Positions 8,796-46,966 of a stretch of DNA of 64,000 bases are shown piece by piece. Origin of the DNA: Tubulanus polymorphus (lineage: Eukaryota; Animalia; Nemertea); NCBI RefSeq assembly GCF_964204645.1, contig NC_134028.1:14081653-14145652 (forward strand). The letters run 5' to 3'. A model generated the notes under the pieces. The model did no database searches. It saw only the letters and a program-made list of their open reading frames with translations, and had not been told where the DNA came from. Both the position numbers and the translations under genes were made by a program. Position 1 is the stretch's first letter. Every line of letters starts with the position of its first letter.

Positions 8796-8796
8796 T

Positions 8797-19922: not shown

Positions 19923-19939
19923 TTATATAATTAAAAAAA

Positions 19940-20373: not shown

Positions 20374-20392
20374 TTATTTAGAAAAGAAATTA

Positions 20393-20816: not shown

Positions 20817-20840
20817 TTATTTAGCAAAAAAATTGTACAT

Positions 20841-21062: not shown

Positions 21063-21394
21063 TTATTTATCAAAAAATTACTTTCTTCAAAATATTTAGT
21101 TATCTTAGTTATAATTATTTCAACATTTAAAGTATTATTAGTTTTATGATTATCATATATTTTGGATAATGTGTTTTTAATATCATCGATAATTCCATCT
21201 TCATTTAGTTCAAAATATTCTAAAGGCGTTTTGATTAAATCAATTACTTTTTCTATATTATAATTTTCTTTATTAATAATTGATGCATTGTTACTTTTAA
21301 TATCAGTAATTATATCATTAAGTTTAATTCTCATTTCTCTACCATGTTTAAAATCAAACCCAAAACATATACTCGGTCCAATAGCTATATTCAT
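21059..21394 (-). CDS. 111 aa hypothetical Polinton protein
   Basis: Homolog of 30593 and 45435. Confidence 0.75.
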   Translation of the reverse strand: MNIAIGPSICFGFDFKHGREMRIKLNDIITDIKSNNASIINKENYNIEKVIDLIKTPLEYFELNEDGIIDDIKNTLSKIYDNHKTNNTLNVEIIITKITKYFEESNFLINK

Positions 21395-21411
21395 TTATAT
21401 ATCAAAAAAAA

Positions 21412-22169
21412 TTACTCTTTACATCTTATAACAAATTCATAATTTACAGGTAAATTATTTATATCAATTAAATATCCATTATGATTTCTAATTTCTAATC
21501 TAAAATTATTAAATTTAGGAATGCATGGTTTGAAATCACACTCAGATAACTTATAATTTATCTGCGTTCCAAATTCTTTAACATTCTTCAATGGTGAAAT
21601 GTTTAATAAACCAGAATTACAACTTATATCTTTAGTTGCTTCGAATGTTTTTGTAGGATCAATTAAATTGCAATAAATATAAAAATGCGTGTAAGGTATA
21701 AAGTTTGGTGTAGCATCAATATTTGTAAAAGATCTATCTGGAGGAATTCCTAACAGTTTAGCTATAGGTTTTTTACCATAAATCTATTTGTTTCAATATT
21801 AGACAACCTTATCTTTATTTTGTCAGAACTCTCACTTTATAAAAATCTAATATTAACCCCGGAATTACTACCTGACTTGTGCCAGGCTTTTCTATTAATT
21901 TCTTGTGCCAATGTATCTAAATTATATAACCCTGGTTTTAAATATATAGAGGCCCATTCATTTTTATTTTCATCAAAAATTAAAAAGGCTCTATGTTCAA
22001 TAGTTTTATTCGATATATTGTAAAATGAGTTACATACATTTACATTTACTAATTTTAAATCTACACGATTCTTACATTCTCTTTCTAATTGTACTAGTAA
22101 ATTATGTGATTTATAAAGTGTAAGTCTTCTAGAATCAACAAATATTCTATATTCTTTTAATTCTACCAT
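21412..22169 (-). pseudogene. Minor capsid (penton) protein, frameshifted
   Basis: Homolog of 29821 and 45808. Confidence 0.75.
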
Positions 22170-22186
22170 TTATTTTATATATTTTC

Positions 22187-22467
22187 TTATTCGAAATCTA
22201 TGTCATGGTGCCCTTTTTCATTCTTGCCCTTATATCTGAAATAAAAATCACCTGAACATAATTCTTCTAAATCTTCACTTGATAATCTATGAAATCTATC
22301 TGGTAAATATGTTCTGAATTTATATGTATTTCCTTTTAATCCGTCATATTCTAAGTGGATAACTAATTTACTACCATATCTATTAGTAACTGTATCAATA
22401 TTTGTAATTAGATATTTCTTATGAATTGTTAATTCCGTTAACCTTTTGAATTTATAATCTACTGATT
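22187..22467 (-). pseudogene. Small OB-fold-like ORF, 5' truncated
   Basis: Homolog of 46584-46937. Confidence 0.7.
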
Positions 22468-22604
22468 GTTGTTCTAGATTAAAGGTTGAGGGGGCGAGTG
22501 AGTAAAAAATGAAAAATAAATTCGAGTGTGCGAGAATTTATTTTTCATTTTTTATGAAATCGACCTCTCGACCTTTGATCTAGAACAACTAAACCCATAT
22601 TACT
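22468..22604. repeat. Terminal palindrome of Polinton TIR (inner arm partly deleted)
   Basis: GTTGTTCTAGATTAAAGGT..AAATTCGAGTGTGCGAGAATTT..ACCTTTGATCTAGAACAAC..ATTACT. Confidence 0.88.
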
Positions 22605-25152: not shown

Positions 25153-25305
25153 AGTAATAGGGAATAAGTTGTTTCATACCAAAGGTTGAAAGGGGCGAGT
25201 GAGTAAAAAATAAAAAATAAATTCTCGCAAACTCGAATTTATTTTTTATTTTTTACTCACTCGCCCCTTCAACCTTTGATATGAAACAACTTATTCCCTA
25301 TTACT
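25153..25305. repeat. Terminal palindrome, near-perfect, 153 bp
   Basis: AGTAATAGGGAATAAGTTGTTTCATA..AAATT-CTCGCAAACTCG-AATTT..TATGAAACAACTTATTCCCTATTACT. Confidence 0.95.
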
Positions 25306-25384
25306 CTTAAAATATTCATATATATGAATAAAATATGAATGAATAACTTCTAAAATCAATTTCAATAAAAAATTTAGTATTAAA

Positions 25385-28300
25385 ATGGAAGCAAATAAGT
25401 ACTACTGCCCAACATGTAATATCAATATAGACAAATCCCAAAAAGCTAGACACAATAAAACTAAAACACATTTAGAGAATAAATTGAAATTAGAATATGA
25501 AGATGATATATTAGAAACTAAATTAGATGAATTAAAGAATGAAAAAGAAACATACAAATGTGATACATGTAATCAATCATTCAGTGATAAAAGATATTAT
25601 AAAGAACATTTAAAATCTAAAAGTCATATTAGAAATATCAATAATGATATTTTAGGTGAAGAATATTTTGATAATGATAATGATAAGAAACAGAAGACAA
25701 TTAAAAGCATAAAAAATAAATTAAACAATAAAAGACCATACATGGAAGATGTAAGAAATTATATTAATTCATCAGATAATAAAAAAGATATAGAGATAAC
25801 CGAAGCATTTAAAAGTGATATTGGTCCAGCAGCTATCGAGTTTAAATTTCATAAAGGAGAAACATTAGAAGAAAATAAAAAACATTTAGAAAATATGAAA
25901 AATATTATAAAAATAATTACTGATGTTGAATATCCTAAAATAAGTATTTCATCAAAAGTTAAATTCATAAAATCTAAAGATAAACCAATATATAATATAA
26001 ATTCTCATTCACAACAGATTATATCTAAACAACATATAGATGATAAATTAGATAAATGTTATAATGAAGTAAAAACTAAAATAGAAGAGAAATATTTTGA
26101 AGGATCTGTTTTAATATTTGATGAAATAATATTTATGACTTTAAATGTTTATAACACAAAATAAGTTAACTAAATCAAAACCAATTGAAGAAAATAATGT
26201 ATCATATTATAAAGAACCAGATATTGAAGCATCGAGTTATATTAAACTACCATTTAAAACTAATGCTGTAATAAATGTACAAAATGAAGATGATATATGT
26301 TTTCTATGGGCTATAATAAGTTGTTTACATTCAACAGAAGATATTACACATAGTTTTAGATTAACTCATTATAAACCATTTGAAAATAATTATAAGATAG
26401 ATAATTATCCTGTTAGAATTAAAAATATCCCAAAAATAGAAAGAGATAATAATATAAAGATAAACGTATTTGATTTAATCAAATTACCAAGTACAAAAGG
26501 TAACAACATAAAACATTATACATTAGAACCTTTATATCTATCAAAAGATTATGACTCAAATGATGTTATAGATATATTATATTATGAAAATCATTATATG
26601 TGGATTAAAAGAATTGATTTATTCTTTAAATCAGAAAATGATTTTGATAATAAAATATATCTATGTAGAAAATGTTTACATAAATTCAGAACTGAAAGTG
26701 CATTATTAAATCATAAACAATTATGTGAAAATCATGATTATTGTAAATTAGTTTTACCAAATGAAAAGGATAAAATATTAGAATTCAAAAAATATGATTA
26801 CAAAAATAAAGTACCATTTGTAATATATGGAGATTTTGAATCATTAAATAAAGAACTAACTGATCAAGATAGAAAAGAAATGTAATATAAAAGAAAGAAA
26901 TTAAATTCTAATGAAAATGATTATTCTGAAGAACCACCAAAAACAAATACTATTAAAAAGATTCATCAATCAGCTGCTGCTTTCGGGTTATATATTAAAT
27001 CTGATTATCCAGAACTAATTGAAAGTGAATATTACGATTATAGAAATGAAAATGTTATCAATCATTTTTGTGACTTATTAATTGAATATGAAATAAGATT
27101 TAGTAAATTATTGAATACAAATATAGAAATTATAATGACAGAAGAAGATAAAGAAGAATTTGCGTTTGCAGATAAATGTTATTATTGTGAAAAGATATTT
27201 AATTATAAAGATAATAAAGTAAGAGACCATGATCATTTGAACGGAAAGTTTAGAGGCGCTGCACATGAGAATTGTAACTTACAAGCTAAGAAAATTAACT
27301 TTGTACCAGTTATATTTCATAATCTATCAGGATATGATGCACATTTATTCATCAAACAGTTATGTCATAAAATAGAAGAAATTAATAATGAAATAGAAAG
27401 ATTAAATTCAAATAGATCAAAAGATAAAATACCAACTTATAAATTTAGAATGTTAGTTAAAACTTCTGAGAATTATATATCATTCCAATTTGGTTGCCTA
27501 AGATTTATAGATTCATATAGATTTTTAAATAGTTCATTAGATAACTTATCAAAATCATTAGTTGATGATGAATTAAAGATATTAAAACAACACTACCCAA
27601 ATAATGATGATTTTCAATTAATGAGATATAAAGGCGCAATTCTATATTCTTTCTATAAAAATCGTAATGATTTTAACATAACTGAATTATTAAAAGAACA
27701 ATTTTATGATGAATTAAAAAATGAATATGTTAAAGATGAAGTATATAATAGATAATTGAATATTTGGAATCATTTCAATATAGAAAATCATGGGCAATTA
27801 GTAGATATATATTTAAAATCAGATGTATTATTATTAACCGATATATTCGAAAGGTTTAGAGATGTAAACCTAAAATATTTTAATATTGATCCTTGTCATT
27901 GTTATTCATCACCAGGATTAACATGGGATTGTGGATTAAAATTTACAGATATAAAAATGGATTTGTTAACAAATATAGATCAATTACTATTATTTGAAAA
28001 ATCTATAAGAGGAGGAGTTGCAGGTGTATTAGGGGATAGATATTTCAATGTAAATGATAACCCTGGATATAAGTTATTATATATAGATGCAAATAATTTG
28101 TATGGTTGGGCAATGATGGAACCACAACCTTATGGAGTATTTGAAATAAGTGAAGTTTTACAGAATGAAAATAATGATAAATTTGATTGGAAGAAAAGAA
28201 TTCTAGATATTGCAGATGATTCAGATACTGGTTACTTCTTTGTTGTAGATTTAGAATATCCTGAAGATAAAAAATTTAAATCTAGAAATCTAGCATACTG

Positions 28301-29420
28301 TCCCGAACATAAAACTGTAACTCATGAAGAATTATCAAATTAACAAAAAAGAATTAAACCCGAAAATCATATTCATACAGAAAAGTTAATGGTAACTCAA
28401 GAAGATAAATATAATTATGTAGTACATTACAGAATGTTAAAGTTTTATCTAAAACAAGGAATGATTCTAAATAAAGTACATAGATATATTTCATTCAGTC
28501 AATCTAAGTGGTTAGAAAAATATATAGATTTTAACACCAAACAGAGAACTAAAGCTAAAACTGATTTCGAAAAAGATTTCTTCAACTTAATGAATAATGC
28601 ATTCTATGGAAAAACTTGTGAAAATATTAGAAATAGAAATGATATTGAGTTAGTTAGTAATGGTAAAAGGATAAGGCATTTACAATCATATCCTAAGTTC
28701 ATTGGTAACAGAATATTTGATGAAAATTTAGCTGCAGTTAAGATGAGAAGAACATCAATGAAATTTAATAAACCAATCTATGTTGGCGCTTCAGTTTTAG
28801 AATTATCAAAATTACTAATGTATGAATTCTATTATAATGTATTACAACCACTTTTTGGAGAAAAGCATATAGAAATATTATATCTTGATACTGACAGTTA
28901 CATATTAAAGATAAAAACTGATAACATAACAGATGATTTAAAAACATTAAAACATCATTTTGATTTCAGTAATTATCCTAAAGATCATGAATTGTTTAGC
29001 AATGATAATAAAAAAGTTCCAGGGAAGTTTAAGGATGAATTAGGCGGTGAAGAAATGATAGAGTTCATAGGTATTAGATCTAAAATGTATTCATATAAAA
29101 CTAAAGAACATGAAGCTAAAAAGTTAAAAGGAATAACCAAAAGTGTAGTAGAAAAGAATATTCATTTCAAAGATTACATCAATTGTATATTCAATGAAGG
29201 AGTTAGAAAACATAAGATGAGATGTTTAAGATCTGAAGATCATGAAATGTTTATTGAAGAAATTGAAAAGATAAGTCTAAACCCATTTGATGATAAAAGA
29301 TATATTTTAGATGATGGAATTCATACAGTTGCTTATGGTTGCAATTTAGATGAATACTTAAAATTTAAAAGAGAAGAAACAAAAGAGAATGAGATAATGA
29401 AAAGAATTCTATTGTGTTAA
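25385..29420 (+). pseudogene. Full-length pPolB with a few stops/frameshifts (ZnF, vOTU-like, EndoVII-like, exonuclease, polymerase)
   Basis: ORFs 25385, 26145, 27111, 27756 and 28389 are collinear; YGDFES, FHNLSGYD, FIDSYRF, YLKSDV, DANNLYG, NNAFYGK, YLDTDS. Confidence 0.95.
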
Positions 29421-29449
29421 TCAAATTTTGATAAAAATATGTATTATAA

Positions 29450-29803
29450 ATGGAGAGTAAACAAACACACAGTGAGAAAAACAAATTATTTCTAGATAGA
29501 ATAAAAGATACTTCAAATGTCAAATCAGTAGATTATAAATTTAAGAAGTTAACAGAATAAACAATCCATAAGAAATATCTAATTGCAAACATTGTTACAG
29601 TTACTAACAAATATGGAGATAAATTAGTTATACACTTAGAATATGAAGGATTAAAAGGAAATACATATAAATTCAGAACATATTTACCAGATAGATTTCA
29701 TTGATTATCAAGTGAAGATTTAGAAGAATTATGTTCTGGTGATTTCTATTTCGTATACAAAGGTAAGAATGAAAAAGGGCATCATGAAATAGATTTCGAA
29801 TAA
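29450..29803 (+). pseudogene. Small OB-fold-like ORF with one stop
   Basis: Homolog of 46584; TAA at ~29558. Confidence 0.7.
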
Positions 29804-29820
29804 GAAAATATGTAAAATAA

Positions 29821-30576
29821 ATGGCGGAATTAAAAGCATACAGAATATTTGTTGATTCAAGAAAACTTACAAATTATAAATCACATAATTTACTAGTACA
29901 ATTAGATAGAGAATTCAAGAATTGTGTAGATTTAAAATTAGTAAATATAAGTTTATGTAATTCTTTTTATAATATATCGGATACAACTTTTGAACACAGA
30001 GGGTTTATGATTTATATGAGAAATAAAGATAATTGGTTTCATATATTTTTAAAACCAGGATTATATAATTTAGAATCATTAGCGCAGGAAATTCATAGAA
30101 GAGCTCGGTTGAAAATCGGGTGCACTTCTGTATTTGAAATTAAATTTAATAAAATTGATAGTACTAATAAAATAAGAATAAAGATATCTAATGAACAACA
30201 TAAATTTATGGTAAACAAACCACTGGCTAAAATGTTAGGAATTAAACCGCTTACAGTTACTGGAAACGCAGAAGGCAGCTCAAATATAATACCTTTTACA
30301 CACTTTTATATTTATTGCAATTTAATCGAGCCTACAAAAACTTTCGAAGCAACTAAAGAAACAATTTGTAGTTCTAGTATACTTAATATTTTACCGCTAA
30401 AAAATGTTAAACAATTTGGAACTCAAATAAATTATAATTTAACAGAATGTGATTTTAAACCTTGCATTCCTAAATTTAATAATTTTAAATTAGAAATAAG
30501 AAATCATAATGGATATCTAATTGATTTGAATAACTTTCCTGTGATATATGAATTAGTTATAAGATGTAGAGAGTAA
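29821..30576 (+). CDS. Minor capsid (penton, single jelly-roll) protein
   Basis: IFVDSR start; FYIYCNLIE..ILNILP..LEIRNHNGYLIDLNNFPVIYEL is typical of Polinton/virophage pentons. Confidence 0.75.
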   Translation: MAELKAYRIFVDSRKLTNYKSHNLLVQLDREFKNCVDLKLVNISLCNSFYNISDTTFEHRGFMIYMRNKDNWFHIFLKPGLYNLESLAQEIHRRARLKIGCTSVFEIKFNKIDSTNKIRIKISNEQHKFMVNKPLAKMLGIKPLTVTGNAEGSSNIIPFTHFYIYCNLIEPTKTFEATKETICSSSILNILPLKNVKQFGTQINYNLTECDFKPCIPKFNNFKLEIRNHNGYLIDLNNFPVIYELVIRCRE

Positions 30577-30595
30577 TTTTTTCATTATATAAATG
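30577..30595 (+). promoter_or_regulatory. T6-N7-TAAATG motif (poxvirus late-promoter-like), representative copy
   Basis: TTTTTT CATTATA TAAATG; same spacing before 30950, 31196, 31639, 32091, 33486 and 34987. Confidence 0.65.
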
Positions 30596-30949
30596 AATAT
30601 AACTGTTGGACCGAGTATATGTTTTGGGTTTGATTTTAAACATGAGAAAGAAATGAAATTTAACATTAATGATGTAATTACACGTATTAAAAATGTTGCA
30701 TTTTCTAATGAAACAACATTTGAGTATGAAACAACAATAGATAAAGAAACTTTAAATGTAGAAAAGATTACTAATTTAATTAGAGAATCTTTAAGATTTT
30801 ATGAATTAGATGAAGATTTTATCATCGATGATATTAAAAAAATAATAATTGAAATATATACAAATGAAATTAGTAATGAAATAAATGTTGAATTAATCAT
30901 CACTAAGTTAACTAAATATTTTGAAGATAGTAATTTTTTTGATAAATAA
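30593..30949 (+). CDS. 118 aa acidic hypothetical protein
   Basis: Intact ORF, three copies. Confidence 0.78.
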   Translation: MNITVGPSICFGFDFKHEKEMKFNINDVITRIKNVAFSNETTFEYETTIDKETLNVEKITNLIRESLRFYELDEDFIIDDIKKIIIEIYTNEISNEINVELIITKLTKYFEDSNFFDK

Positions 30950-31171
30950 ATGAGTGGTAATAAGTGGATAATAACTGGATCATATAATGGAGCATTATTA
31001 TCAGTTGGAACTGTTGGTTATTCAATGGTATTAAAAAAAGTATTTAAAATGGGAAGTGTTAATGTTGATAGATTTGATGTAAATGATATTTTAAAATTAA
31101 CGTTAGCAGTTACTTTATCTAATTTAACTATTGATTATTTGGAAAAACTAAAATATATTCCTCCCATATAA
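30950..31171 (+). CDS. 73 aa hydrophobic protein
   Basis: Intact; abuts the upstream stop (TAA ATG). Confidence 0.8.
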   Translation: MSGNKWIITGSYNGALLSVGTVGYSMVLKKVFKMGSVNVDRFDVNDILKLTLAVTLSNLTIDYLEKLKYIPPI

Positions 31172-31195
31172 ATGCATAATTTTTTTACTAAATAA

Positions 31196-31618
31196 ATGGC
31201 TTCTGCAATTATAACTATTATAGGATCGGCAATTGTTAACGCTTTAGCATTTACTGGTGGCGGTTATTTATTTAAACATATTGATAAAAATAGTTCATTA
31301 GGAGAACAAAGAAGACATAACTTAGCATTAGAGAAATATAATAAAGCAGCAGAAGAATATAGAGAAAAGAGGCAAAACTATATGGATTATATTAACAAGG
31401 AATTATATGATCAGAAGATTTCACATAGAGATTTTCAATCAGTTGATGATGCAATGAGTTTATATAACGCGGTAACCAATAAAGAAAAATTACATCTATA
31501 CAAACCTAAATTATCAGATTATTATACCCCAAGTAACGAACAACAGAAATATGAAATAATATGGATCTTAGGCGGAACTGTTATTGTTATATTTGTAGCA
31601 TATAGATTTACTAATTAG
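31196..31618 (+). CDS. 140 aa protein with hydrophobic N-terminus and C-terminal TM (putative virion membrane protein)
   Basis: MASAIITIIGSAIVNALAFTGGGYLF..IIWILGGTVIVIFVAY. Confidence 0.78.
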   Translation: MASAIITIIGSAIVNALAFTGGGYLFKHIDKNSSLGEQRRHNLALEKYNKAAEEYREKRQNYMDYINKELYDQKISHRDFQSVDDAMSLYNAVTNKEKLHLYKPKLSDYYTPSNEQQKYEIIWILGGTVIVIFVAYRFTN

Positions 31619-31638
31619 TAATTTTTTTTGCTAAATAA

Positions 31639-32074
31639 ATGGAAGATAAAGTTGATAATATTGATATTATTCCTCATGATATCAGTAAAACTAAATTAAA
31701 AACATATTTAGAAAAAAAAAATTTTAGAATTTGAATGTGACTTAAAGATAAAAAAGAAAAAATATTTAAAAAGTAAAATTATATATTATCTTATTATCAG
31801 TGGTTCGGTTACAATTAGTTCTGTAATAACATTTCTAGCAATATTCAGTCCATTAACACCTTTAGCTATATCAATTGGTGTATTAGGATTAAGTTCAAGT
31901 GTTTTAACTGGTATAAGTTCAAAATTGAATATAAAAAGTAATAAAGAAAAAATTAAAACTAATATAAAAGAAATTAATAAATTGAAGAATACACTAGATT
32001 ATATCATAAGTTTAAATGGTCATATAACAGTTGAAGAACAAGATAAATTATTAAAAGAATTAATAAATTATTAA
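31639..32074 (+). pseudogene. Two-TM small protein, frameshift in an A-run
   Basis: Homolog of 44317; long A-run at ~31712. Confidence 0.75.
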
Positions 32075-32090
32075 TTTTTTAATTATATAA

Positions 32091-33469
32091 ATGGTAGATA
32101 GTTTTCCAAAAGCTTTCCAATATAATAAATCAATTAAATATAATATTCCAGCAATAGATTTTAATAAAGATATTACATATAGAAATGAAGTTTTAGATTC
32201 ATTAACTAATTTAGAAATTTATGTTACTGAAACTAATAATTCTAATGCAAAGATGGAAAGTATATTTCATGTATATTTAATTGATTTTAAAAAATTGAAA
32301 GATGAAAAACGATGGTTATTAAAATTGGCAGAACCAATTAAATTTTGCTGTTTATTGTGCAACAACAGGATGTGGAATTAGTTGGAATGATCATTTGAAT
32401 AATTCTAAATATAAATTAATTCAAAGTTTATTTAGATTTCATACATACTTTCAAATCAGAATAATATTAAATGAATTAGAGTGTGCTTTACCAGGATCTA
32501 GGTATTTTAAAGAATTAGATAATAATATTAATTTATCAAAGTTTTATAAAATTTGTAATGAATTTAATATAGATATAAATAATTCTGATTTTAGAACAAA
32601 AATTGGAACAATAAGATCACTTCCTTGCCCTAAAAAGATTGCAGAATATTGTGCACTTCCCATACCATCTAATAGTTTGTATAATATCTATAGTAATAAA
32701 TTAGGTTATGGTAAAATAGAAACTAAGGATTTAGAAAAAAATTTTAAATTTCAATAAATTACCGACATTTTATGATAATTTAAAACAAGAAAACAATAAT
32801 GGTTGGGTTTATTTCATTTTAGAAAATAATGAAGGTTTTACAAAATCAGGTATACAAAGAATAAATCAATCTATTAGAACTTATTTGATATGTATTTTAG
32901 GTGCGCAAGTTGAAACAAGATCCCCAATAATTGGAAATTTAAATACCTCATTTGATACACAGAAACAATTCAAAGTATTATTTGAAGATTCTATTCATAA
33001 TGATAAAAATAGATCGATTCCAGAAAACATTGTAAGATATCAAAATTATTTAGATAAATCACATATTAGATTAAATTATTGTATAGGCCCTAATCTATTT
33101 ATTATTTCTAATGATTTAGTATTAAAGATAGGAAACATAATTGGTTACAATAATCTAATTAAAACTGCAACAATAAATAATTCATTTGGATTGAATGATA
33201 TAAATAAAAAGATTATTTCTGCTCCAAAATTAATGGAAGGCGAAAAAAATAAAAAACATATTTAATCAACAGAAACTAAAACTAAGAATATTAAATTAAA
33301 TGATGATTCTAAAATAAAAGATTATAATACATCAGAAAATATAAAAACTGATGATATTCAACACGATATAATTAAACTAAATGATGATAATAAATCCCAT
33401 GAAAATACTAAATTAGCTATAACTTGTATAGGAATTGTAATCGGAGGAATATTATATTTTAAATTTTAA
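32091..33469 (+). pseudogene. Conserved ~440 aa protein, fragmented
   Basis: ORFs 32091, 32395 and 32885 are collinear with 43104/41905. Confidence 0.8.
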
Positions 33470-33485
33470 TTTTTTTATTATGTAA

Positions 33486-34968
33486 ATGGATGTAGAAGGT
33501 GGAGAAGATTATGAAATGGACGGCATGGGAAATAATAATGACGGATATATTGATGATGATTATAATGATGCAGAAACAAGTTTTAATGATGGTTATGAAT
33601 CAGCATATAATTCTAATTTAGCAGATAGTGGTTCTAAAGGCCAATCAACAGATGAATATATTAGAGGAGCTAAATCGAGAATAGATATTGAAAATGAAGA
33701 TCCAGAATTATTAAAGAAAAATTTAGAATATAATGAATATATTTATAATTTCAAACCTATATTTGAAAAATCTGGATATAATATAAATGATAGAGGCGCT
33801 AGACTTTTAGTACAAGACTTAAAGTTTTTAGATGGTGAATATTATTATCGTTTGAAAGATGATTATTATATTGATATCTCTTATAAAAAACAAAACAAAA
33901 TATTAGCAGAATCAACTTTGCTTAATTTAAAACCAGATATAATTAAAAGAATAAGAAATAGTAATGAACCAGAAGATGTAACACAAGAAGAAATTATTAA
34001 AAATGAAAGAGTATTTAAACAAAGAATGAATGAATTATTTGAAACAATCGATAATAATTTAGAACCAGAAACAACTTCTGAACAGAATATAACTTCCAAA
34101 ACTAGTAGACCTAATTCAAGAGAAGTTCAAACTGAAAAACTTTTACCGAAGGGATTACTTGATGCAACAGATCAACAATTAGAAGATTTAGATATATTTT
34201 CTGATAAAGCAATTAGAGAGATTATTAGTATAAGACTTGCATCTGATAAAATTATGCATGATAAAAGTATAAGAGATTTTAAAATTAGAACTTTAGAAAA
34301 AGAATTAACTGATAAAAATAAAGAAATAGAACAATTAAAGTCTGATCTTGATCGTAAAGCAATTGATGAAATTGAATTTAAAAAAAGAAATGCGTATTTA
34401 AAAAAAGAAAAAGATGATTTAGAATATAACATAGAATTACAAAAAGAAGAAATTAAATTATTATTAAAATCATATGATTATAATATTGATAGATTAAAAG
34501 ATGTTTTTAAAAGATATCTAATAAAACCAAATTCTAAAATATCATTGAAAGATAGAATAAAATTATTATTTAAGTTTGAAGGAATAACAATTCTTTCAAT
34601 TCTAACGGCGGTAACTATGTTATTTACAACAATTGGTTTAGCAATATCAAATGCTTTAAAATCTACTCCTACTCCCAATAAACCGGATAAACCCCCGAAT
34701 GATAATAATTCTATACAAGATAAAGTTAAGGATGGTTTAAAGAAATTAGCAAAATATTTATGGGAACTATGAAAGAAATCTGCTGCAGCATTGCCAGGAG
34801 TTGTTGCATCAATTGTTGGTTTTATATTGAAATCTGCAGGAAACATTATTAACTTTGCTGCTGAACATATTATTTTATTTTTAATTACAGTTGTAAGTGC
34901 TATTATTTTTGGTTTAGTAAACATGATATCAAAAAATATCAAGTAAACATGATCAAAAATAAATAATT
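33486..34968 (+). pseudogene. Acidic/coiled-coil membrane protein (variant A), one stop at 34770
   Basis: 428 aa ORF, then TGA where other copies have Ser; reading continues ALPGVVASIVGFIL. Confidence 0.8.
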
Positions 34969-34986
34969 AATTTTTTTGTTAAATAA

Positions 34987-36235
34987 ATGAGCGGGAGTTA
35001 TATCAATCCTTCTAAGAATCATAGAATATCTAATGCTATTAAAGCAGAAAGATCACATCATATAATTACTCATAACCCTTCTAACATTAATCCTGATGAA
35101 ACTTTATATGTTAGAATTCCTCGATTAACACAAAATACTTTTTATGTTCCAAATAGTATTTATTTATCAGCCGATATAAAAGTAATCGGTAATAATAATA
35201 ATTATGTTGTCGATAATGTTGGAAGAAATTTGATTAAAAAATTAACAATAAAGATTGGTCCAGAAACAGTTTTCTCATTAGATGATTATAATTTATTTAT
35301 GCATTATAAAGATTTATGGTTAACTAAAGAAAATGGAAATAATATGATATTTCAAGGCATCCAATCAGAAAACCAAAATAAATTAAGATCTGAAGCTAAT
35401 AATGCAGTAGTAACTAATGCTACAGATAATTTGATAAAAAAGATTTATGGAAGCAAATATAAAATTCCATTAGACTTTGAATTGATAAATAACAATGCAC
35501 CTTCATATAAATACGCAATTCAAGAAGATGTTATATTCGAAATAACATTTGCTCCTGTAAATGAAATTGTAATATCTAGCGTTAATAAAGATATGAGTTA
35601 TAAATCATCGAATATATGTTTAGAATATGACACAGTAACTGATGAAAATATTTCAAGTATAATTCAAACTCAATACAATCAAGGATTTTCATTATTATAT
35701 GATTATATTGATAAATTTAAAACTGTAACTATTAATGCAAATGATGAAATAATTAATGAGAATATTAACTTCCCAAGAAGATCTATTAAAGTTATATTAA
35801 TATTTTTTACCATTGCAACATATACTAATGGTGCAATAAATGTTGATAATTATTATAATCCTGAAATAACAAAAGTAGAAATAACTATCGAAGGAATAGC
35901 AAATAAAATATTTTGTCAAGGAATGAGAATGATTGATCAATGGCCAGAAATTAGAAAACATTTTATGAATGAAAAAGTAAAATCATTTGAAAATTGTAAT
36001 ATTAATCAAATTGATTATTATACCGGTAATAAATATGCATTATGGTTAGATTTTAGAACAACAGAGGATAATTCATTACATGGTTCTGGAAAAAAAACTA
36101 CAAAACACTAAAGATGGAATACAATTATTCATGACAAAGAATAAAGGAATCAAAAATTTTAAAATGCACATTTATATTATATCTGACGCGCAATTAAATA
36201 TTGTAAATTCTCAATTAAATAGTGTTATGTATTAA
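34987..36235 (+). pseudogene. Major capsid protein (putative double jelly-roll), frameshift near the 3' end
   Basis: ~415 codons, beta-rich; THNPSNINPDETLYVRIP, YKIPLDF, NINFPRRSIK, LWLDFRT; position in the structural module. Confidence 0.8.
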
Positions 36236-36267
36236 AATTTTAACTTTAATAAAAATTTATATAATAA

Positions 36268-36582
36268 ATGGAAGGAGGTAAAGTATATAAACATATTCCA
36301 TACATCGATACACATGAAAATAATGATGGCTTATATTATGTAATACCTTGTAATATAGCTTTGATATTTGATCCTTTTTTCAAAATTTATAAAACTAAAC
36401 TAATAGAAATCGATAATAATAAAAGTGAAGTTGTTGATAATTTAAGTAATGTAATTGATAATAATGTAATACCTTCTACATCTAATAATGTTTTACCTTC
36501 TACATCAAATAATGTTTTACCTCCTACATCAAATAATGTTTTACCTTCTACATCAAATAATGAAATATTTGATCCTATTTTC
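36268..36582 (+). pseudogene. Zinc-finger gene 5' part with NNV(I/L)PSTS 24-bp repeats
   Basis: Matches the N-terminus of 59275-60201; breaks into integrase sequence. Confidence 0.75.
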
Positions 36583-36752
36583 AAGAATTATCACTTGTAC
36601 CAAATCCAGAGGAAATAGAATACAAAATAGAAAAAGTATTGAAAACAAAAACTCTTAAAGGAAAAAAGTATTCTTTGGTGAAATATAAAGGATACGATGA
36701 TAAATTTAATGAATGGATTTTATCTAGTAAAATTAAAAGAATAAATGAATAA
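36583..36752 (+). pseudogene. Integrase chromodomain fragment
   Basis: QELSLVPNPEEIEYKIEKVLKTK..FNEWILSSK. Confidence 0.85.
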
Positions 36753-37427
36753 AGATTTATTCATATTTGAACCGCATAATATGTTAATAACTGGAGTAAC
36801 CAATTGTGGTAAAACACATTTCATATTAGATTTGTTAGAAACTGTTTATAAGAATCATTTTGATAATATAATATTATTTTGTCCTACTTATGAAATGAAT
36901 AAAGATATAATAGAGATATAGTTAAGATGAAAAAGTTTATTATACTAGATCCTAAAACAGTAAAAGAAAATTTAGATAATTGTATAAAAATAGCAATTGA
37001 TACTTATAAAGGATCAAATACATTATTCATTATAGATGATTGCACTAATTTACATGATTCAAAAGTGAGAGAAAGCGAGTTATGTTATCTAGCTTTCTCT
37101 GGGAGACATTTTGGGATAACAACATGGGTTTTAAATCAAAAATATGATTCAATTGTTAAAGACTTTAGGGAGAATATAAGATTTCTAGTTTTATTTTATA
37201 ACAAAGATAGAAAATCTATGCAACAATCATTGGAAGAAAATCAAATTATACCTACTGAATTACATGATGAATATATGAATAAATTAAAGAATAATAAAGG
37301 TTCAAAATTATTACTGAGACTACGATTTCCCTATGAATATAAATTTATAAAAAAACTATTTATAATTTGGAATATTATAGAAACTAATTTATATTTCTAT
37401 GTACTAGACGTACGAGTAAGAAAGTAA
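36745..37427 (+). pseudogene. Packaging ATPase, frameshifted
   Basis: GVTNCGKT at ~36793; frameshift near 36905. Confidence 0.88.
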
Positions 37428-37600: not shown

Positions 37601-37699
37601 TTCTTGGTAAGGATTCTTGGGTTCTTACTTTCTTACTCATACGTCTAGTGCATAGATATATAAATATTTTTATAGATATATAAATAGTTTTATAATAAT

Positions 37700-38852
37700 T
37701 ATTCTAATTTTGTTTCTAATACATTTATAAAATCATCTTTGTTTATATCAAATTCATCAGAAGTCTTTGGCATATTTATTAATTCTATTTCATCCTTCAT
37801 TCTACGTTCATCATCACTTAATCCAGCTTTTATTCTTAATTATTCAAAGTAATCATTAGAATTATCACCATCAAAATCAAATTCAAAATCATTTATTTAA
37901 TTGAATAAATCTAGGTATCCATTATACGCTAATTTATATATTTGGTCAGGATTATCTTCTGCATAAGCTAATAATTTATCAAATAACAACTTAAAGAATA
38001 TATGATATTGTTTAGTTTCAGGATTAAGATATTTGATATATTTCTTTAATATTTTTCTTTGGTTCATCTAACAATGGTAACATACCCACTTTTTTATAAA
38101 CATTAATTAGATTTAATTAATTTTGATTTATAATGAGTAATTTTATCAACAGGATCAATTTCTTTATTACAGTAATCACATATTAATTCTTTTTCATTTT
38201 CTATGTGCCCCTTAGATTTTTAATGTTTAGAAAAATTACTTTTAGAAATATCTAAATTACAAATGTTACAATGTTTTTTAGAATCATCCATTATTTCATT
38301 ATCTGTTATATCATTATCATTAGTTTCAATTGGGTTAACATTATTTATTACATTATCTGTTATATTATCTATGGTATCATTAGTTTCAATTGGGTTAACA
38401 TTATCTTTTATATTACTAACTGATATATTATTATCATTATTATTCTTTTCTTTTTCTATATGTTTCTTTGATTTCTTATGTGATACCCAATTTTTATATG
38501 ATATATATTTCTTACATACATCACAATATTTTGGATTATAATAATCTTTTTTTGATTCAATATCATATGTAGAGGGTATATTATAAGATGTAGATGCTGT
38601 TACATCTTCTATTTTAGATTCAATATTATTACTATCTTCTATTTTAGTTTCAATATCATCTTCTATTTTATATTCAATATCATTCTTATCTTCTATTTTA
38701 GTTTCAATATTATCTTTTATTTTACTTATTCTATATTTGAATTGATTATAGTAATCTCCAAAATACTTAATGTATTCATCATAAGGTAATATATAATATA
38801 TATCTGTTATCATTTCACTTGGAGTTTGTATTTCATATATTCCACCTTCCAT
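37700..38852 (-). pseudogene. Variable zinc-finger protein and downstream ~88 aa region, decayed
   Basis: YCDVCKKY..SHKKSKKH and HCNICNLDISKSNFSKH; 3' part homologous to 59022-59500. Confidence 0.75.
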
Positions 38853-38885
38853 TTATATAATATATTTTTATTAAAGTTAAAATTT

Positions 38886-40131
38886 TGATACATAACACTA
38901 TTTAATTGAGAATCTACAATATTTAATTGCGCGTCAGATATAATATAAATGTGCATTTTGAAATTTAGACTTCCTTTTTTCTTTGTCATGAATAATTGTA
39001 TTCCATCTTTAGTGTTTTGTAATTTTTTCCAGAACCATGTAATGAATTATCCTCTGTTGTTCTAAAATCTAACCATTATGCATATTTATGGCCGGTATAA
39101 TAATCAATTTGATTAATGTTACAATTTTCAGATGATTTGACTTTTTCATTCATAAAATGTTTTCTAATTTCTGGCCATTGATCTATCATTCTCATTCCTT
39201 GACAAAATATTTTATTTGCTATTCCTTCGATAGTTATTTCTACTTTTGTTATTTCAGGATTATAATACTTATCAACCTGTATTGCACCATTAGAATATGT
39301 TGCAATTGTGAAAAATATTAATATACCTTTAATAGATCTTCCTGGGAAGTTAATATTCTCATTAATAATTTCATCACTTGCATTAATAGTTACAGTTTTA
39401 AATTGATCAATATAATCATATAATAATGAAAATCCTTGATTGTATTGAGTTTGAATTATACTTGCAATATTTTCATCAGTTACTGTATCATATTCTAAAC
39501 ATATATTCGATAATTTATAACTCATATCTTTAACTACATTTGATAATACAATTTCATTAACAGGAGCAAATGTTATTTCGAATATAATATCTTCTTGAAT
39601 TGCGTATTTATATAAAGGTGCATTATTATTTATCAATTGAAAGTCTAATGGAATTTTATATTTGCTTCCATAAACCTTTTTAATCAAATTATCTGCGGTA
39701 CGAGTTACTATTGCGTCATTAGCTCCTGATCTTAATTTATTATGGTTTTCTGATTGGATGCCTTGAAATATCATATTGTTTCTGTTTTCTTTAGTTAACC
39801 ATAAATCTTTATATTGCATAAATAAATTATAATCATCTAATGAGAAAACTGTTTCTGGACCAATCTTTATAGTTAATTTTTTAATCAAATATCTCCCAAC
39901 ATTATCGACAACATAATTATTATCATGACCAGTAACTTTTATATCGGCTGATGAATAAATACTATTTGGAACATAAAAAGTATTTTGTGTTAATCGAGGA
40001 ATTCTAACATATAAAGTTTCATCGGGATTAATATTTGAAGGGTTATGAGTAATTATATGATGTGATCTTTCTGCTTTAATAGCAGTAGATATTCTAGAAA
40101 TCTTAGAAGGACTTATATAACTCCCACTCAT
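38886..40131 (-). pseudogene. Major capsid protein, one in-frame stop
   Basis: 351 aa ORF, then TAA replacing Leu. Confidence 0.82.
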
Positions 40132-40151
40132 TTATTTAACAAAAAAATTAA

Positions 40152-41888
40152 TTATTTATTTTTAATCATATTCACTAGCCCAAAAATAATAGCACTTACA
40201 ACTGTTATTAAAAATAGAATAATATGTTCAGCAGCAAAGTTAAGAATATTCCCAGCAGATTTCAATATAAAACCAACAATTGATGCAATAATTCCTGGCA
40301 ATGCTGTAGCAGATTTTTTAGATAGTTCCCATAAATATTTTGCTAATTTCTTTAAACCATCCTTAACTTTATCTTGTATAGAATTATTATCTGGGGGTTT
40401 ACACGGTTTATTAGGATTTGGTGTAGATTTTAATGAATTTGATATTGCTAAACCAATTGTTGTAAATAACATAGTTACAGCTGTTAGAATTGAAAGAATT
40501 GTTATTCCTTCTAACTTAAATAATAATTTCATTCTATCTTTCAATGATATTTTAGAATCTGATTTTATTATTAAATCTTTAAAAATAACTTTTAATTTTT
40601 TATTATGATTAAGATCATATGATAATAATAATGTATCTCTTTCTTCTTTCTGTAATTCTATATTATATTTTAAATCATCTATTTGTTTTTCTAAAGCTAA
40701 CTTTCTGCTTTCATAATCAGCTTCCTCGATTAATTGAAGATTTTTATCTAATTTTAATTGTTCTTATTTTTCATTTGCAATAGCTAATTCTTTTTCTAAC
40801 ATGGTTATTTTAGAAAATCTCATACTAATATTAGCATTTACATCGGCTGATTCTTGTATACCTTTAATTTCTCTACGTGTTTGTTCAGGAAATGCTTCTA
40901 ATTCTTCATCAGTTAATTTAAGTAATCCTTTTTCTAGTAAAGATTGTATTCGATTTATTCCAGTTTCAGTACCGGGCGTATCTAAAACACTAATCATATC
41001 TTCTTCAAATGAATTCATTGTATCCAGTAAGTTATCTAAACGTTTTCCTAATTGTAATTGACTTGAATCATTATCAATTGGTTGAGTGTCTCTTCTCGAT
41101 GTTTCTGGTGTTGAAGATCTTAATTTATCTAATCGATTTGCAAAATCCTCATCAGTTTCTGGATCAACAAAAGTAGGATTTGGATTTGGATTTTTAAATG
41201 GTGAATATTTGTTTATATCAATATTAGGAATTGGTTCTTCTTCATTTATTCTATCGATTGCATTCCATATAATTCTGAGAAATTCTCTACCACCTTTTGA
41301 ACGTTCAATTGAAGATCCTTTACGCATTTCAGGATGGTACAGATCTTTTTGTCCCATTTTAGATAATTGAATTGATACAGTTTCGTTATTTAAATCAACT
41401 TTAACAAACCATGAATCATTTTTAAATTCTAAATTATTCATGAAAAATGGATCATCTTCTCTAATTTGTTCTGAAATCTCTTCTGGTTCAATGTTATATG
41501 TTACATTTTTTGGTAATAATTCTTCAATAACTGTATTTGTTACACTATGTTTTATGTATAATAATTGTTTTTTCAATTCAGGGTTTTTTGTTCTTTCTAA
41601 TCTATTAATTAACTCTTTTCTTTTTGGTCTAGTTGTAATTATTATCTCATCGTGGGTTCTTAAATGATCTATTATTTTTTCACTTGTTTCAGTATCATCT
41701 TTAAATTCATCATAATCATATAATATAGGCCCACTAGAATCATCTTCACCTAAATTAGAATTATATGCTGATTCATTACCATCATTAAAACTTGTTTCAT
41801 CAAAATTAGGTTGTGGTTCATCAGGTATAAATCCTTCATTATTATTTCCAATGCCACCCAATGGAATATCTTTTCCACCTTCTGCCAT
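40152..41888 (-). pseudogene. Acidic/coiled-coil membrane protein (variant B), one stop
   Basis: ORFs 40764 and 40152 are in frame and match 9103. Confidence 0.8.
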
Positions 41889-41904
41889 TTACATAGTTTA
41901 GAAA

Positions 41905-44300
41905 TTAAAATTTAAAATATAATATTCCTCCGATTACAATTTCTATACAAGTTATAGCTAATTTAGTATTTTCATGGGATTTATTATCATCATTTAGTTT
42001 AATTATATCATGTTGAATAATATCAGTTTTTATATCTTCTGATGTATTGTAATCTTTTATTTTGGAATAATTATTTAATTTAATATTCTTAGTTTTAGTT
42101 TCTGTTGATTGAATGTGTTTTTTATTTTTTTCACCTTCCATTAATTTTGGAGCAGTAATAATCTTTTTATTTATATCATTCAATCCAAATGAATTATTTA
42201 TTGTTGCAGTTTTAATTAGATTATTATAACCAATTATATTTCCCATCTTTAATACTAAATCATTAGAAATAATTAATAGATTAGGGCCTATACAATAATT
42301 TAATCTAATATGTGATTTATCTAAATAATTTTGATATCTTATAATGTTTTCTGGAATCGATCTATTTTTATCATTATGTATGGAATCTTCAAATAAAACT
42401 TTAAATTGTTTTTGTGTATCGAATGATGTATTTAAATTTCCAATTATTGGGGATCTTGTTTCAACTTGCGCACCTAAAATACATATCAAATAAGTTCTAA
42501 TAGATCGATTTATTCTTTGTATTCCAGCTTTAGTAAAACCTTCATTATTTTCTAAAATGAAATAAACCCAACCATTATTGTTTTCTTGTTTTAAATGATC
42601 ATAAAATTTCGGTAATTTATTGAAGTTTAATGTTTCTAAATCCTTAGTTTCTATTTTACCATAACCTAATTTATTATTATAGATATTATAAAAACTATTG
42701 GATGGTATGGGAAGTGCACAATATTCTGCAATCTTTTTAGGGCAAGGAAGTGATCTTATTGTTCCAATTTTTGTTCTAAAATCAGAATTATTTATATCTA
42801 TATTAAATTCATTACAAATTTTATAAAACTTTGATAAATTAATATTATTATCTAATTCTTTAAAATACCTAGATCCTGGTAAAGCGCACTCTAATTCATT
42901 TAATATTATTCTGATTTGAAAGTATGTATGAAATCTAAATAAACTTTGAATTAATTTATATTTAGAATTATTCAAATGATCATTCCAACTAATTCCACAA
43001 CCTGTTGTTGCACAATAAACAGCAACATTTAATTGGTTCTGCCAATACTTCATATTAGATTTTAATAACCATTGTTTTTCATCTTTCAATTTTTTAAAAT
43101 TAATTAAATATACATGAAATATATTTTCAATCTTTGCAATCCTTCCATTAATTTTGGAGCAGTAATAATCTTTTTATTTATATCATTCAATCCAAATGAA
43201 TTATTTATTGTTGCAGTTTTAATTAGATTATTATAACCAATTATATTTCCCATCTTTAATACTAAATCATTAGAAATAATTAATAGATTAGGGCCTATAC
43301 AATAATTTAATCTAATATGTGATTTATCTAAATAATTTTGATATCGTATAATGTTTTCTGGAATCGATCTATTTTTATCATTATGTATGGAATCTTCAAA
43401 TAAAACTTTAAATTGTTTTTGTGTATCGAATGATGTATTTAAATTTCCAATTATTGGGGATCTTGTTTCAACTTGCGCACCTAAAATACATATCAAATAA
43501 GTTCTAATAGATTGATTTATTCTTTGTATTCCAGCCTTAGTAAAACCTTCATTATTTTCTAAAATGAAATAAACCCAACCATTATTGTTTTCTTGTTTTA
43601 AATGATCATAAAATTTCGGTAATTTATTGAAGTTTAATGTTTCTAAATCCTTAGTTTCTATTTTACCATAACCTAATTTATTATTATAGATATTATAAAA
43701 ACTATTGGATGGTATGGGAAGTGTACAATATTCTGCAATCTTTTTAGGGCAAGGAAGTGATCTTATTGTTCCAATTTTTGTTCTAAAGTCAGAATTATTT
43801 ATATCTATATTAAATTCATTACAAATTTTATAAAACTTTGATAAATTAATATTATTATCTAATTCTTTAAAATACCTAGATCCTGGTAAAGCGCACTCTA
43901 ATTCATTTAATATTATTCTGATTTGAAAGTATGTATGAAATCTAAATAAACTTTGAATTAATTTATATTTAGAATTATTCAAATGATCATTCCAACTAAT
44001 TCCACAACCTGTTGTTGCACAATAAACAGCAAAATTTAATTGGTTCTGCCAATACTTCATATTAGATTTTAATAACCATTGTTTTTCTTCTTTCAATTTT
44101 TTAAAATTAATTAAATATACATGAAATATATTTTCAATCTTTGCATTAAAATTATTAGTTTCAGTAACATAAATTTCTAAATTAGTTAATGAATCTAAAA
44201 CTTCATTTCTATATGTAATATCTTTATTAAAATCTATTGCTGGAATATTATATTTAATTGATTTATTATATTGGAAAGCTTTTGGAAAACTATCTGCCAT
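41905..44300 (-). pseudogene. Conserved ~440 aa protein with ~1 kb internal tandem duplication
   Basis: ORFs 41905 and 43104 are nearly identical; units start at 42134 and 43141. Confidence 0.85.
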
Positions 44301-44316
44301 TTATATAATTAAAAAA

Positions 44317-44751
44317 TTAATAATTAACTAATTCTTTTAATAATTTATCTTGTTCTTCAACTGTTATATGGCCATTTAAACTTATTATATAATCTAGTGT
44401 GTTCTTTAATTTATTAATTTCTTTTATATTAGTTTTAATTTTTTCTTTATTACTTTTTATATTTAATTTTGAACTTATACCAGTTAAAACACTTGAACTT
44501 AATCCTAATACGCCAATTGATATAGCTAAAGGTGTTAATGGACTGAATATTGCTAGAAATGTTATTACAGAACTAATTGTAACTGAACCACTTATAATCA
44601 AATAATATATAATTTTAGATTTTAAATATTTTTTCTTTTTTATCTTTAAGTCACTTTCAAATTCTAATATTTGTTTTTCTAAATATATTTTCAATTTAGT
44701 TTTACTGATATCATGAGGAATAATATCAATATTATCAACTTTATCTTCCAT
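44317..44751 (-). CDS. 144 aa two-TM protein with flanking coiled coils
   Basis: Intact; IIYYLIISGSVTISSVITFLAIF..LAISIGVLGLSSSVL. Confidence 0.8.
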   Translation of the reverse strand: MEDKVDNIDIIPHDISKTKLKIYLEKQILEFESDLKIKKKKYLKSKIIYYLIISGSVTISSVITFLAIFSPLTPLAISIGVLGLSSSVLTGISSKLNIKSNKEKIKTNIKEINKLKNTLDYIISLNGHITVEEQDKLLKELVNY

Positions 44752-44770
44752 TTATTTAGAAAAAAAATTA

Positions 44771-45188
44771 CTAATTAGTAAACTTATACGCTACAAATAT
44801 AACAATAACAGTTCCACCTAAAATCCATATTATTTCATATTTCTGTTGTTCTTTACTTGGGGTATAATAATCTGATAATTTAGGTTTGTATAGATGTAAT
44901 TTTTCTTTATTGGTTACCGCGTTATATAAACTCATTGCATCATCGACTGATTGAAAATCTCTATGTGAAATCTTCTGATCATATAATTCCTTGTTAATCC
45001 ATATACTTTTGCCTCTTTTCTCTATATTCTTCTGCTGCTTTATTATATTTCTCTAATGCTAAATTATGTCTTCTTCGTTCTCCTAATGAACCATTTTTAT
45101 CAATATGCTTAAATAAATAACCACCGCCTGTAAATGCTAAAGCGTTAACAATTGCCGATCCTATAATAGTTATAATTGCAGAAGCCAT
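44771..45188 (-). pseudogene. MASAII.. membrane protein, frameshifted
   Basis: Small deletion near 44996. Confidence 0.78.
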
Positions 45189-45212
45189 TTATTTAGCAAA
45201 AAAATTATGCAT

Positions 45213-45434
45213 TTATATGGGAGGAATATATTTTTGTTTTTCCAAATAATCAATTGTTAAATTAGATAATGTAACTGCTAATGTTAATTTTAAAATATCA
45301 TTTATATCAAATCTATCAACATTAACACTTCCCATTCTAAATACTTTTTTTAATACCATTGAATAACCAACAGTTCCAACTGATAGTAATGCTCCATTAT
45401 ATAATCCGGTTATTATCCACTTATTATCAATCAT
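45213..45434 (-). CDS. 73 aa hydrophobic protein
   Basis: Intact copy. Confidence 0.8.
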   Translation of the reverse strand: MIDNKWIITGLYNGALLSVGTVGYSMVLKKVFRMGSVNVDRFDINDILKLTLAVTLSNLTIDYLEKQKYIPPI

Positions 45435-45791
45435 TTATTTATCAAAAAAATTACTATCTTCAAAATATTTAGTTATCTTAGTGATGATTAATTCAACATT
45501 TATTTCATTACTAGTTTCATTTGTATATATTTCAATTATTATTTTTTTAATATCATCGATGATAAAATCTTCATCTAATTCATAAAATCTTAAAGATTCT
45601 CTAATTAAATTAGTAATCTTTTCTACATCTAAAGTTTCTTTATCTATTGTTGTTTCATACTCAAATGTTGTTTCATTAGAAAATGTGATATTTTCGATAT
45701 GTGTAATTACGTCATTAATGTTAAATTTCATTTCTTTCTCATGTTTAAAATCAAACCCAAAACGTATACTCGGCCCAACAGTTATATTCAT
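45435..45791 (-). CDS. 118 aa hypothetical protein
   Basis: Intact copy. Confidence 0.78.
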   Translation of the reverse strand: MNITVGPSIRFGFDFKHEKEMKFNINDVITHIENITFSNETTFEYETTIDKETLDVEKITNLIRESLRFYELDEDFIIDDIKKIIIEIYTNETSNEINVELIITKITKYFEDSNFFDK

Positions 45792-45807
45792 TTATATAGT
45801 GAAAAAA

Positions 45808-46566: not shown

Positions 46567-46583
46567 TTATTTTACATATTTTC

Positions 46584-46937: not shown

Positions 46938-46966
46938 TTATAATACATATTTTTATTAAAATTTGA

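Follow-up and report, generated by a model that had tools for sequence, protein, structure and literature searches.

A clade of animal Polintons with poxvirus-late-type start sites, represented by decayed copies in the nemertean Tubulanus polymorphus

Which RNA polymerase reads the genes of an integrated DNA element when nearly all of them begin within one short motif? This question is raised by a stretch of 64,000 nucleotides (nt) from Tubulanus polymorphus (Nemertea; RefSeq assembly GCF_964204645.1, contig NC_134028.1, positions 14,081,653 to 14,145,652, forward strand), which is called the window in the following and whose positions are used throughout. The window contains at least four nested, decayed and partly rearranged copies of one element, which is a Polinton/Maverick according to its protein-primed DNA polymerase B (pPolB), integrase, A32-type packaging ATPase, double-jelly-roll capsid and AGT-starting termini. 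In a first-pass annotation of the letters, seven consecutive structural genes were described to start at TAAATG behind a T-run, and transcription by a cytoplasmic poxvirus-like helper was proposed.

Start-site motif in the window

All seven plus-strand T-run/TAAATG strings of the first-pass annotation are present, and the motif recurs on the minus strand at each of the positions named there (9057, 17151, 40131, 44300 and 45791). The pattern TTTTTTN{5,9}TAAATG was found 26 times, corresponding to 20 distinct sites after merging overlapping registers. In 100 dinucleotide shuffles the mean was 1.74 matches (standard deviation 1.52, maximum 7) and none reached 26, so that the motif is enriched over the shuffled null. 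Each of the 20 distinct sites is a gene start (20/20).

The restriction of TAAATG to the structural module was not confirmed, since the motif is element-wide and was found at 38 of the 44 curated window starts. The six other starts belong to five pPolB copies (four with TAAAATG, one decayed) and to one copy of a 130-amino-acid (aa) gene. For the integrase, the start lies apart from TAAAAT; it is not included in the 44 curated starts. This gene is a recurring exception, with the ATG a few bases 3′ of TAAAAT/TAAAT (window 6020–6040 and 50385–50410; position 4981 in the related locus L004 and 1642 in L005).

The T-run at a fixed distance could be identified as well, but it belongs to a range of A(n)T(m) tracts that all have a fixed T in common, located at position −9 before TAAAT. 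This T was present in 32/32 window starts vs. 58/136 other TAAATG sites, and a T 12 nt before the ATG was found in 44/44 curated starts. Replication and packaging genes mostly have the A-rich form of the tract. The sites and genes on the plus strand are as follows:

25367–25387, +: A-tract and TAAA-ATG site of pPolB
25385–29420, +: pPolB in several fragments, including zinc-finger and endonuclease-VII-like parts
29432–29452, +: A-tract and TAAATG site of a ~117-aa gene (probable single-stranded DNA-binding protein (SSB), weak evidence), broken copy
29803–29823, +: A-tract and TAAATG site of a 251-aa gene (29821–30576; probably penton-like)
30575–30595, +: T-tract and TAAATG promoter-like site of a 118-aa gene (30593–30949)
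30932–30952, +: T-tract and TAAATG site of a 73-aa hydrophobic gene (30950–31171); the TAA is the stop codon of the upstream open reading frame (ORF)
31178–31198, +: T-tract and TAAATG site of a 140-aa hydrophobic gene (31196–31618)
31621–31641, +: T-tract and TAAATG site of a 144-aa two-helix gene, broken copy
32073–32093, +: T-tract and TAAATG site of a ~440-aa conserved gene (32091–~33460), broken copy
33468–33488, +: T-tract and TAAATG site of a ~485-aa coiled-coil/membrane gene (33486–~34940) with a premature stop
34969–34989, +: T-tract and TAAATG site of the major capsid gene
34987–36235, +: gene of the double-jelly-roll major capsid protein, damaged close to the 3′-end, with the ORF stop at 36111
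36250–36270, +: A-tract and TAAATG site of a zinc-finger gene truncated at ~36584
36576–36752, +: 3′ chromodomain end of an integrase, before the A32 ATPase
36727–37427, +: A-tract and TAAATG site with the A32 packaging ATPase (broken)

Since the window copies are ~79–99% identical, they are not independent, and the weight of the evidence therefore lies with relatives from metagenomes.

Conservation of the motif in related Polintons

For the comparison, the best 80 of 250 metagenome loci encoding the capsid were used. The TAAATG clade comprises 16 loci with a capsid at least 52% identical to P0001, the capsid of a relative; this limit was set after viewing the sequences upstream of the major capsid protein (MCP) gene and was later supported by the tree. 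Among ORFs of at least 100 aa in the 16 loci, 55 of 65 starts carry TAAATG, compared to 95 of 2,322 other ATGs. For outgroup Polintons the values were 1/67 (16 equally AT-rich loci) and 4/290 (48 GC-richer loci), and clade members with 36–44% GC retain the TAAATG starts. In at least 80 other large-DNA-virus loci, among the matches listed, TAAATG was found at 34 of 800 starts, and it is therefore not a general trait of AT-rich viruses. These counts support a clade-specific motif rather than an AT artefact.

In the capsid tree (FastTree, midpoint-rooted; partial capsids of L021 and L069 left out), a clade of 22 rows was recovered with a Shimodaira-Hasegawa-like support of 98. TAAATG was present in 14 of its 15 DNA-backed rows and in 0/53 outside the clade, in a tree built without sequences of Lavidaviridae/Virophaviricetes and of entomopoxvirus-associated Polinton-like viruses (PLVs). 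Clade and outgroup have the same core genes, so that the change lies in the start sites and not in the gene set. The data thus reveal a real, clade-wide Polinton lineage with poxvirus-late-type start sites.

Upstream of TAAAT, an A at position −15 (77%) and a T at position −9 (90%) were most common in the clade, linked by an A-then-T run. The T at −9 was identified in 55/61 clade starts vs. 26/89 other TAAATG sites, and an A(n)T(m) tract of at least 6 nt in 44/61 vs. 12/89. T-rich cores were more frequent in capsid/membrane genes (29/44) than in DNA/packaging genes (6/21; p ~0.007, with post hoc categories and related loci); this bias may weakly reflect a split into late and intermediate genes.

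Five divergent gene pairs have an ATG-to-ATG gap of 19–30 nt, in which each gene has its own TAAATG and one central A(n)T(m) tract is shared. In total, 11 of 12 divergent starts retain the motif. In the intact relatives L001–L004 it is located on nearly every gene across a capsid divergence of ~50%, which implies continuing selection in the clade.

Two observations concern the origin of single capsids. The P0047 cluster, located within the TAAATG clade, consists of capsids recorded under Bartonella sp. as hypothetical proteins, on contigs of 0.5–1.6 kb. These are probably animal DNA contaminating the assemblies and may point to clade members in a terrestrial host. The outgroup capsid P0080 bears the name of a bivalve; together with the marine metagenome reads described below, it would suggest an invertebrate host of the window element, probably a marine one.

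Comparison with poxvirus promoters

According to the available part of a 2025 review, vaccinia virus late promoters have TAAAT over the start codon, in most cases with a G behind it, and, at the 10th nucleotide upstream, a T that is more strongly conserved than the Ts around it (PMC11980589). The spacer is given as 5–7 bp in the accessible text of a second source (PMC5294985). The T-rich form found here fits this published definition of a late promoter, as the first-pass annotation had claimed. Vaccinia and other chordopoxvirus late promoters share with it the TAAATG over the start codon, the T-rich core, a T ~9–10 nt upstream and a spacer of 5–7 nt. The T at −9 of the clade is within one base of the review's "10th nucleotide", for which the available part of the review gives no counting origin (PMC11980589). 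In contrast to the poxviruses, the motif is carried here by an integrating element without a detected RNA polymerase (RNAP), and its promoter function is putative.

For the vaccinia intermediate promoter, TAAA with an A/T block 15–19 nt upstream and no conserved T at −10 is described in the same part of the review (PMC11980589). This is not matched by the A-rich form, as the published spacing differs. Salmon gill poxvirus, which infects fish, retains TAAAT as the site of poly(A)-leader slippage, according to the available text of its description (PMC4542343). The late genes of African swine fever virus have TATATA instead, as stated in the accessible text of PMC5294985.

In the sister loci L053, L055, L066, L076, L077, L078 and L049, a TATATA-like element was noticed by inspection at most ~10 nt from the ATG, in place of TAAATG. 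It recalls the asfarvirus late initiator.

Transcription of the Polinton genes

In agreement with the first-pass annotation, no RNAP gene was detected in the window copies or in the 16 clade loci, most of which are partial. Capping enzyme, TBP, TFIIB and VLTF gave no match among the clade proteins in Pfam and PDB sequence searches. For four unassigned families, PDB sequence searches returned no poxvirus transcription protein, which does not exclude such a protein. A poxvirus late signal in an element with no detected RNAP of its own makes reliance on a poxvirus-type helper likely.

We therefore favour, as rather probable, that the Polinton genes are read in the cytoplasm by a poxvirus-type RNAP supplied by a co-infecting helper virus. 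By analogy to vaccinia biology, post-replicative factors of the helper would bind the A/T tract. Transcription would begin within the AAA of TAAATG, with slippage of the polymerase producing a 5′ poly(A) leader, and the mRNAs would thus need no encoded 5′ untranslated region. For replication the element would use its own pPolB; it would be packaged into its own capsid within the cytoplasmic factory of the helper and return to the chromosomes through its integrase, as is the case for mavirus with CroV.

Deoxynucleoside kinase genes were observed in two Polintons of the TAAATG clade (L001 10340–10981 and L007 2895–3377, both on the minus strand). Such a gene suits cytoplasmic replication and proves nothing.

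Several results weigh against a cytoplasmic helper. The promoter architecture and the failure to detect an RNAP support the helper that the first-pass annotation had proposed, but no helper was found in the searches of viral loci. Among 14 IMG/VR exact matches to one motif form, TAAATG was found at no more than 2/5 starts, and among at least 80 viral loci with a deoxynucleoside kinase, among the matches listed, the best had TAAATG at 2/6 starts. Several clade proteins without an assigned family could hide a transcription factor. The A-rich cores lie ~10–17 nt upstream and thus closer than the 15–19 nt of vaccinia intermediate promoters, in which the T retained here is absent. The vaccinia capsid homologue D13 is an intermediate gene, whereas the MCP gene studied here is mostly of the T-class. 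All window copies are broken, and integration requires passage through the nucleus, which is left unexplained by a cytoplasmic helper. The AATAAA signal is not enriched at convergent gene ends of the clade (4/14 vs. 3.5 expected), but this does not discriminate because the outgroup is likewise unenriched (3/84 vs. 3.8).

The sister Polintons are to be counted here as well: they have the same core gene set without the motif, some of them with the TATATA-like element just before the ATG. One of them, L049, encodes a VLTF3-like protein (5082–5576, plus strand; Pox_VLTF3 E 3.6e-5, below the gathering score), for which tblastn gave no match in the window or in the other 79 loci. Given the TATATA-like sisters and this gene, short signals near the ATG may be more widespread and due to another cause.

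An alternative source of a poxvirus-related polymerase would be another small element, or unsampled full-length members of the clade, rather than a large virus. The model for this is found in the yeast pGKL elements, of which pGKL1 is not known to encode an RNAP and uses that of pGKL2. The pGKL elements combine a TAAAN initiator, 5′ poly(A) leaders, stem-loop terminators and a poxvirus-related RNAP, as described in the available part of PMC6211774. Long hairpins are also located at the convergence point of the window element. However, an RNAP gene was detected in no window copy and in none of the 16 mostly partial clade loci. In addition, the window core matches the vaccinia late promoter, whereas pGKL promoters have a different upstream element. 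We regard this source as unlikely.

Transcription by the host RNA polymerase II (Pol II) in the nucleus, steered by an unrecognised TBP- or VLTF-like factor of the element, would make the likeness to poxviruses convergent. The element integrates in the nucleus, 22 of 47 starts are identical to TATAAATG, which contains a TATA box, and the sister locus L049 carries the VLTF3-like gene. A TATA box at the ATG, however, would place the transcription start 25–30 nt downstream and thus within the coding sequence, although the N-terminus of the capsid protein is conserved, with G4 nearly invariant. Divergent genes only 19–30 nt apart and the clade proteins without a match to TBP, TFIIB or VLTF likewise speak against Pol II, and we consider this explanation improbable.

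The motifs could also be genuine poxvirus-type relics of an ancestral helper-dependent stage, with the present copies spread or decayed without a helper. This would agree with the broken or rearranged state of all window copies and with reads that match mostly at 90–99%. The intact L001–L004, in which the motif is kept at ~50% capsid divergence under the continuing selection implied above, make a relic very unlikely.

Finally, the motif could act at the level of RNA, by ending the upstream gene (as a poly(A) site or terminator), as a trans-splice acceptor, or in stop-restart coupling of translation. This is highly improbable: AATAAA lies within 15/47 starts and the window tract often begins at the upstream stop codon (with TAA being this stop at 30950 and 45434), but the TAA is the upstream stop in only 1/39 tandem pairs, T-runs follow 3/16 convergent ends, an AG lies at most 12 nt from the ATG in 7/47 starts, and no upstream gene ends at the 11 of 12 divergent starts with the motif. 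The presence of the motif in head-to-head pairs 19–30 nt apart is difficult to reconcile with a role in polyadenylation, termination or stop-restart. The poly(A) signal and trans-splicing, both named as alternatives in the first-pass annotation, are disfavoured.

Gene content and copies of the element

Using intact natural relatives as queries, pPolB, an rve-chromodomain integrase, the A32 ATPase, an HNH-type gene, the zinc-finger gene, four small or hydrophobic genes, two larger conserved genes and the capsid gene were mapped in the window. For pPolB, a fragment gave a weak DNA_pol_B_2 match, and tblastn with the pPolB of L062 (Pfam E 6e-19) aligned along most of its length. The integrase at 6036–7094 matches residues 1–361 in pieces; rve and chromo domains were found in the relatives L001 and L003. 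The packaging ATPase matches Pox_A32 with E 7e-12.

The structure predicted for P0001 (predicted local distance difference test (pLDDT) 85) is a double jelly roll, with Foldseek E values of 6e-16 to the iridovirus MCP and 1e-10 to the mavirus MCP. The 251-aa gene, with only a weak DUF5901 match (E 1e-4), is the probable penton. The ~117-aa protein is a probable OB-fold SSB on weak evidence from its model (pLDDT 51, Z ≤4.6). The 144-aa two-helix gene gave a weak SLATT-like match.

An adenain-type maturation protease gave no Pfam match in 130 scanned proteins of clade and outgroup and is either absent or unrecognised. The 442-aa protein had no match in the atlas search. Relatives of the capsid or ATPase were not found in IMG/VR, nor relatives of P0047 in GTDB.

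Sequencing reads match the window family mostly at 90–99% identity, and marine metagenome reads fall on 26 of 30 bins. Of two runs presumed to be RNA, one gave two short matches and the other none, which speaks neither for nor against expression. Every window copy is broken or rearranged, and the copies are therefore not active elements. Apart from the copy listed above, the following were distinguished:

2859–14300, both strands: internally deleted copy, in which HNH, 206-aa, 130-aa, integrase and ATPase genes (+) converge on zinc-finger, MCP, 485-aa and pPolB pieces (−)
15193–22604, −: partial structural-arm copy, ending in a terminal palindrome (22468–22604)
37650–52050, −: rearranged copy that retains these promoter sites (45791, 45434, 45188, 44751, 44300, 41888, 40131, 38852 and others)

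A tandem duplication of ~1 kb with 98.7% identity is located within the 442-aa gene at 42119–44145. At 453–2117, a flanking host repeat contains a Myb/SANT gene and, on the opposite strand, a transposase-like remnant, which we take to be PIF/Harbinger-like. A second Polinton-like pPolB fragment is present at 1–235.

Element ends and hairpins

The termini at 2859, 25153 and 22604 share AGTAAT as terminal inverted repeats. In an independent whole-genome shotgun run, 1106 reads depart from the reference at 2859 into dissimilar flanks, and the Polinton family is therefore inserted at many sites. Concerning a 6-bp target-site duplication, the flanks of the termini differ by eye, in copies that are nested and rearranged. 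The mapped termini and the hairpins at the convergence of the two arms are:

2859–3047, no strand: element terminus of the HNH/integrase/ATPase arm, 189-bp palindrome (z −21.0)
25153–25305, no strand: element terminus, 153-bp near-perfect palindrome starting with AGTAAT (z −23.5)
58505–58890, no strand: two long hairpins at the convergence of the ATPase and zinc-finger arms (z −14.2 and −10.9)

The ends at 2859–3047, 25153–25305, 22468–22604 and ~57290–57414 are near-perfect palindromes of 150–190 bp, in which the terminal AGTAAT pairs with an internal ATTACT. It can be speculated that they serve as a fold-back origin for protein-primed replication or as a cruciform for excision. The outgroup contig L058 also opens with a palindrome (1–206), and a palindromic end is therefore not specific to the TAAATG clade. 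A different palindrome of 90 bp lies at the integrase/pPolB junction (50072–50161).

The long hairpins at the convergence of the arms, observed in the window and in L002–L004, are candidate terminators that may stop read-through. Long hairpins just 3′ of the packaging ATPase were observed in the window (58505–58890), in L002 (3090–3200) and in L004 (3150–3280), and further ones downstream of the ATPase in L001 (9082–9359), L016 (1932–2004) and L025 (2166–2202). Their position is kept and their sequence differs; they occur in outgroup loci, too. One window copy of the convergence hairpins folds weakly (z −2.5 and −1.6). A general rule of hairpins at gene ends was rejected, as 5 of 14 convergent ends had z < −7, all at the central junction.

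Related systems and biological meaning

The element resembles the known Polintons/Mavericks (Polintoviricetes; "adintoviruses", PMC8502044) in its pPolB, rve integrase with chromodomain, A32-type ATPase, double-jelly-roll capsid, AGT-starting termini and many insertions. It differs in that no adenain protease was detected and in that one clade has poxvirus-type starts on nearly all genes. The main text of PMC8502044 does not mention the word "promoter".

Mavirus and EMALE04 with their helper CroV are likewise integrated small DNA viruses with rve integrase, pPolB and a promoter pointing to a cytoplasmic helper. EMALE04 shares its promoter with CroV, and in mavirus-like elements promoter sharing predicts helper specificity, as described in the available part of PMC10945749. 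The motif is TAAATG here and TCTA in CroV, and the capsid of the window element groups with Polinton-type relatives by sequence; the host is an invertebrate here. For the window element, a helper is predicted, and the antiviral protection suggested in the first-pass annotation is conjectural.

The linear cytoplasmic pGKL1/2 elements of yeast differ from the window Polinton in having their own RNAP, and neither a capsid nor an integrase is known from them. The TAAAN initiator and a poxvirus-related transcription logic of these elements (PMC6211774) resemble what is seen here.

Entomopoxvirus-associated PLVs were proposed to be hyperparasites of poxviruses (Barth et al., 2024; PMC11296320). As far as the available text describes them, they were obtained from occlusion bodies, all have a cysteine protease and two have no detectable integrase; they are set beside the window element here by this published description. 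In the available part of the main text, the words "promoter", "TAAAT" and "transcription" are absent (PMC11296320). No report of a poxvirus-type TAAATG promoter in Polintons was found in the open-access literature. Poxvirus-associated PLVs are already known from insects.

As a tentative extension, for which we claim less than even confidence, the whole clade of animal Polintons could be endogenous virophages of poxviruses. They would be carried in the germline until the late transcription machinery of a poxvirus-type virus, itself undiscovered and infecting (marine) invertebrates, activates them in a two-step programme of A-cores and T-cores. Sister clades would be tuned to other, TATATA-type helpers. 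The start motifs would then be a barcode of unknown helpers and possibly part of an inherited antiviral defence.

If the genes of the clade are indeed read by the poxvirus-type RNAP of a helper, poxvirus relatives are predicted in hosts where the searches of viral loci found none. A promoter of 25 bp would work only with a poxvirus-type polymerase and would give 5′ poly(A) leaders. The life cycle of a mavirus-type integrated virophage would extend to an animal Polinton clade. What is at stake is the mode of expression of animal Polintons and their status as autonomous viruses, transposons or helper-dependent parasites.

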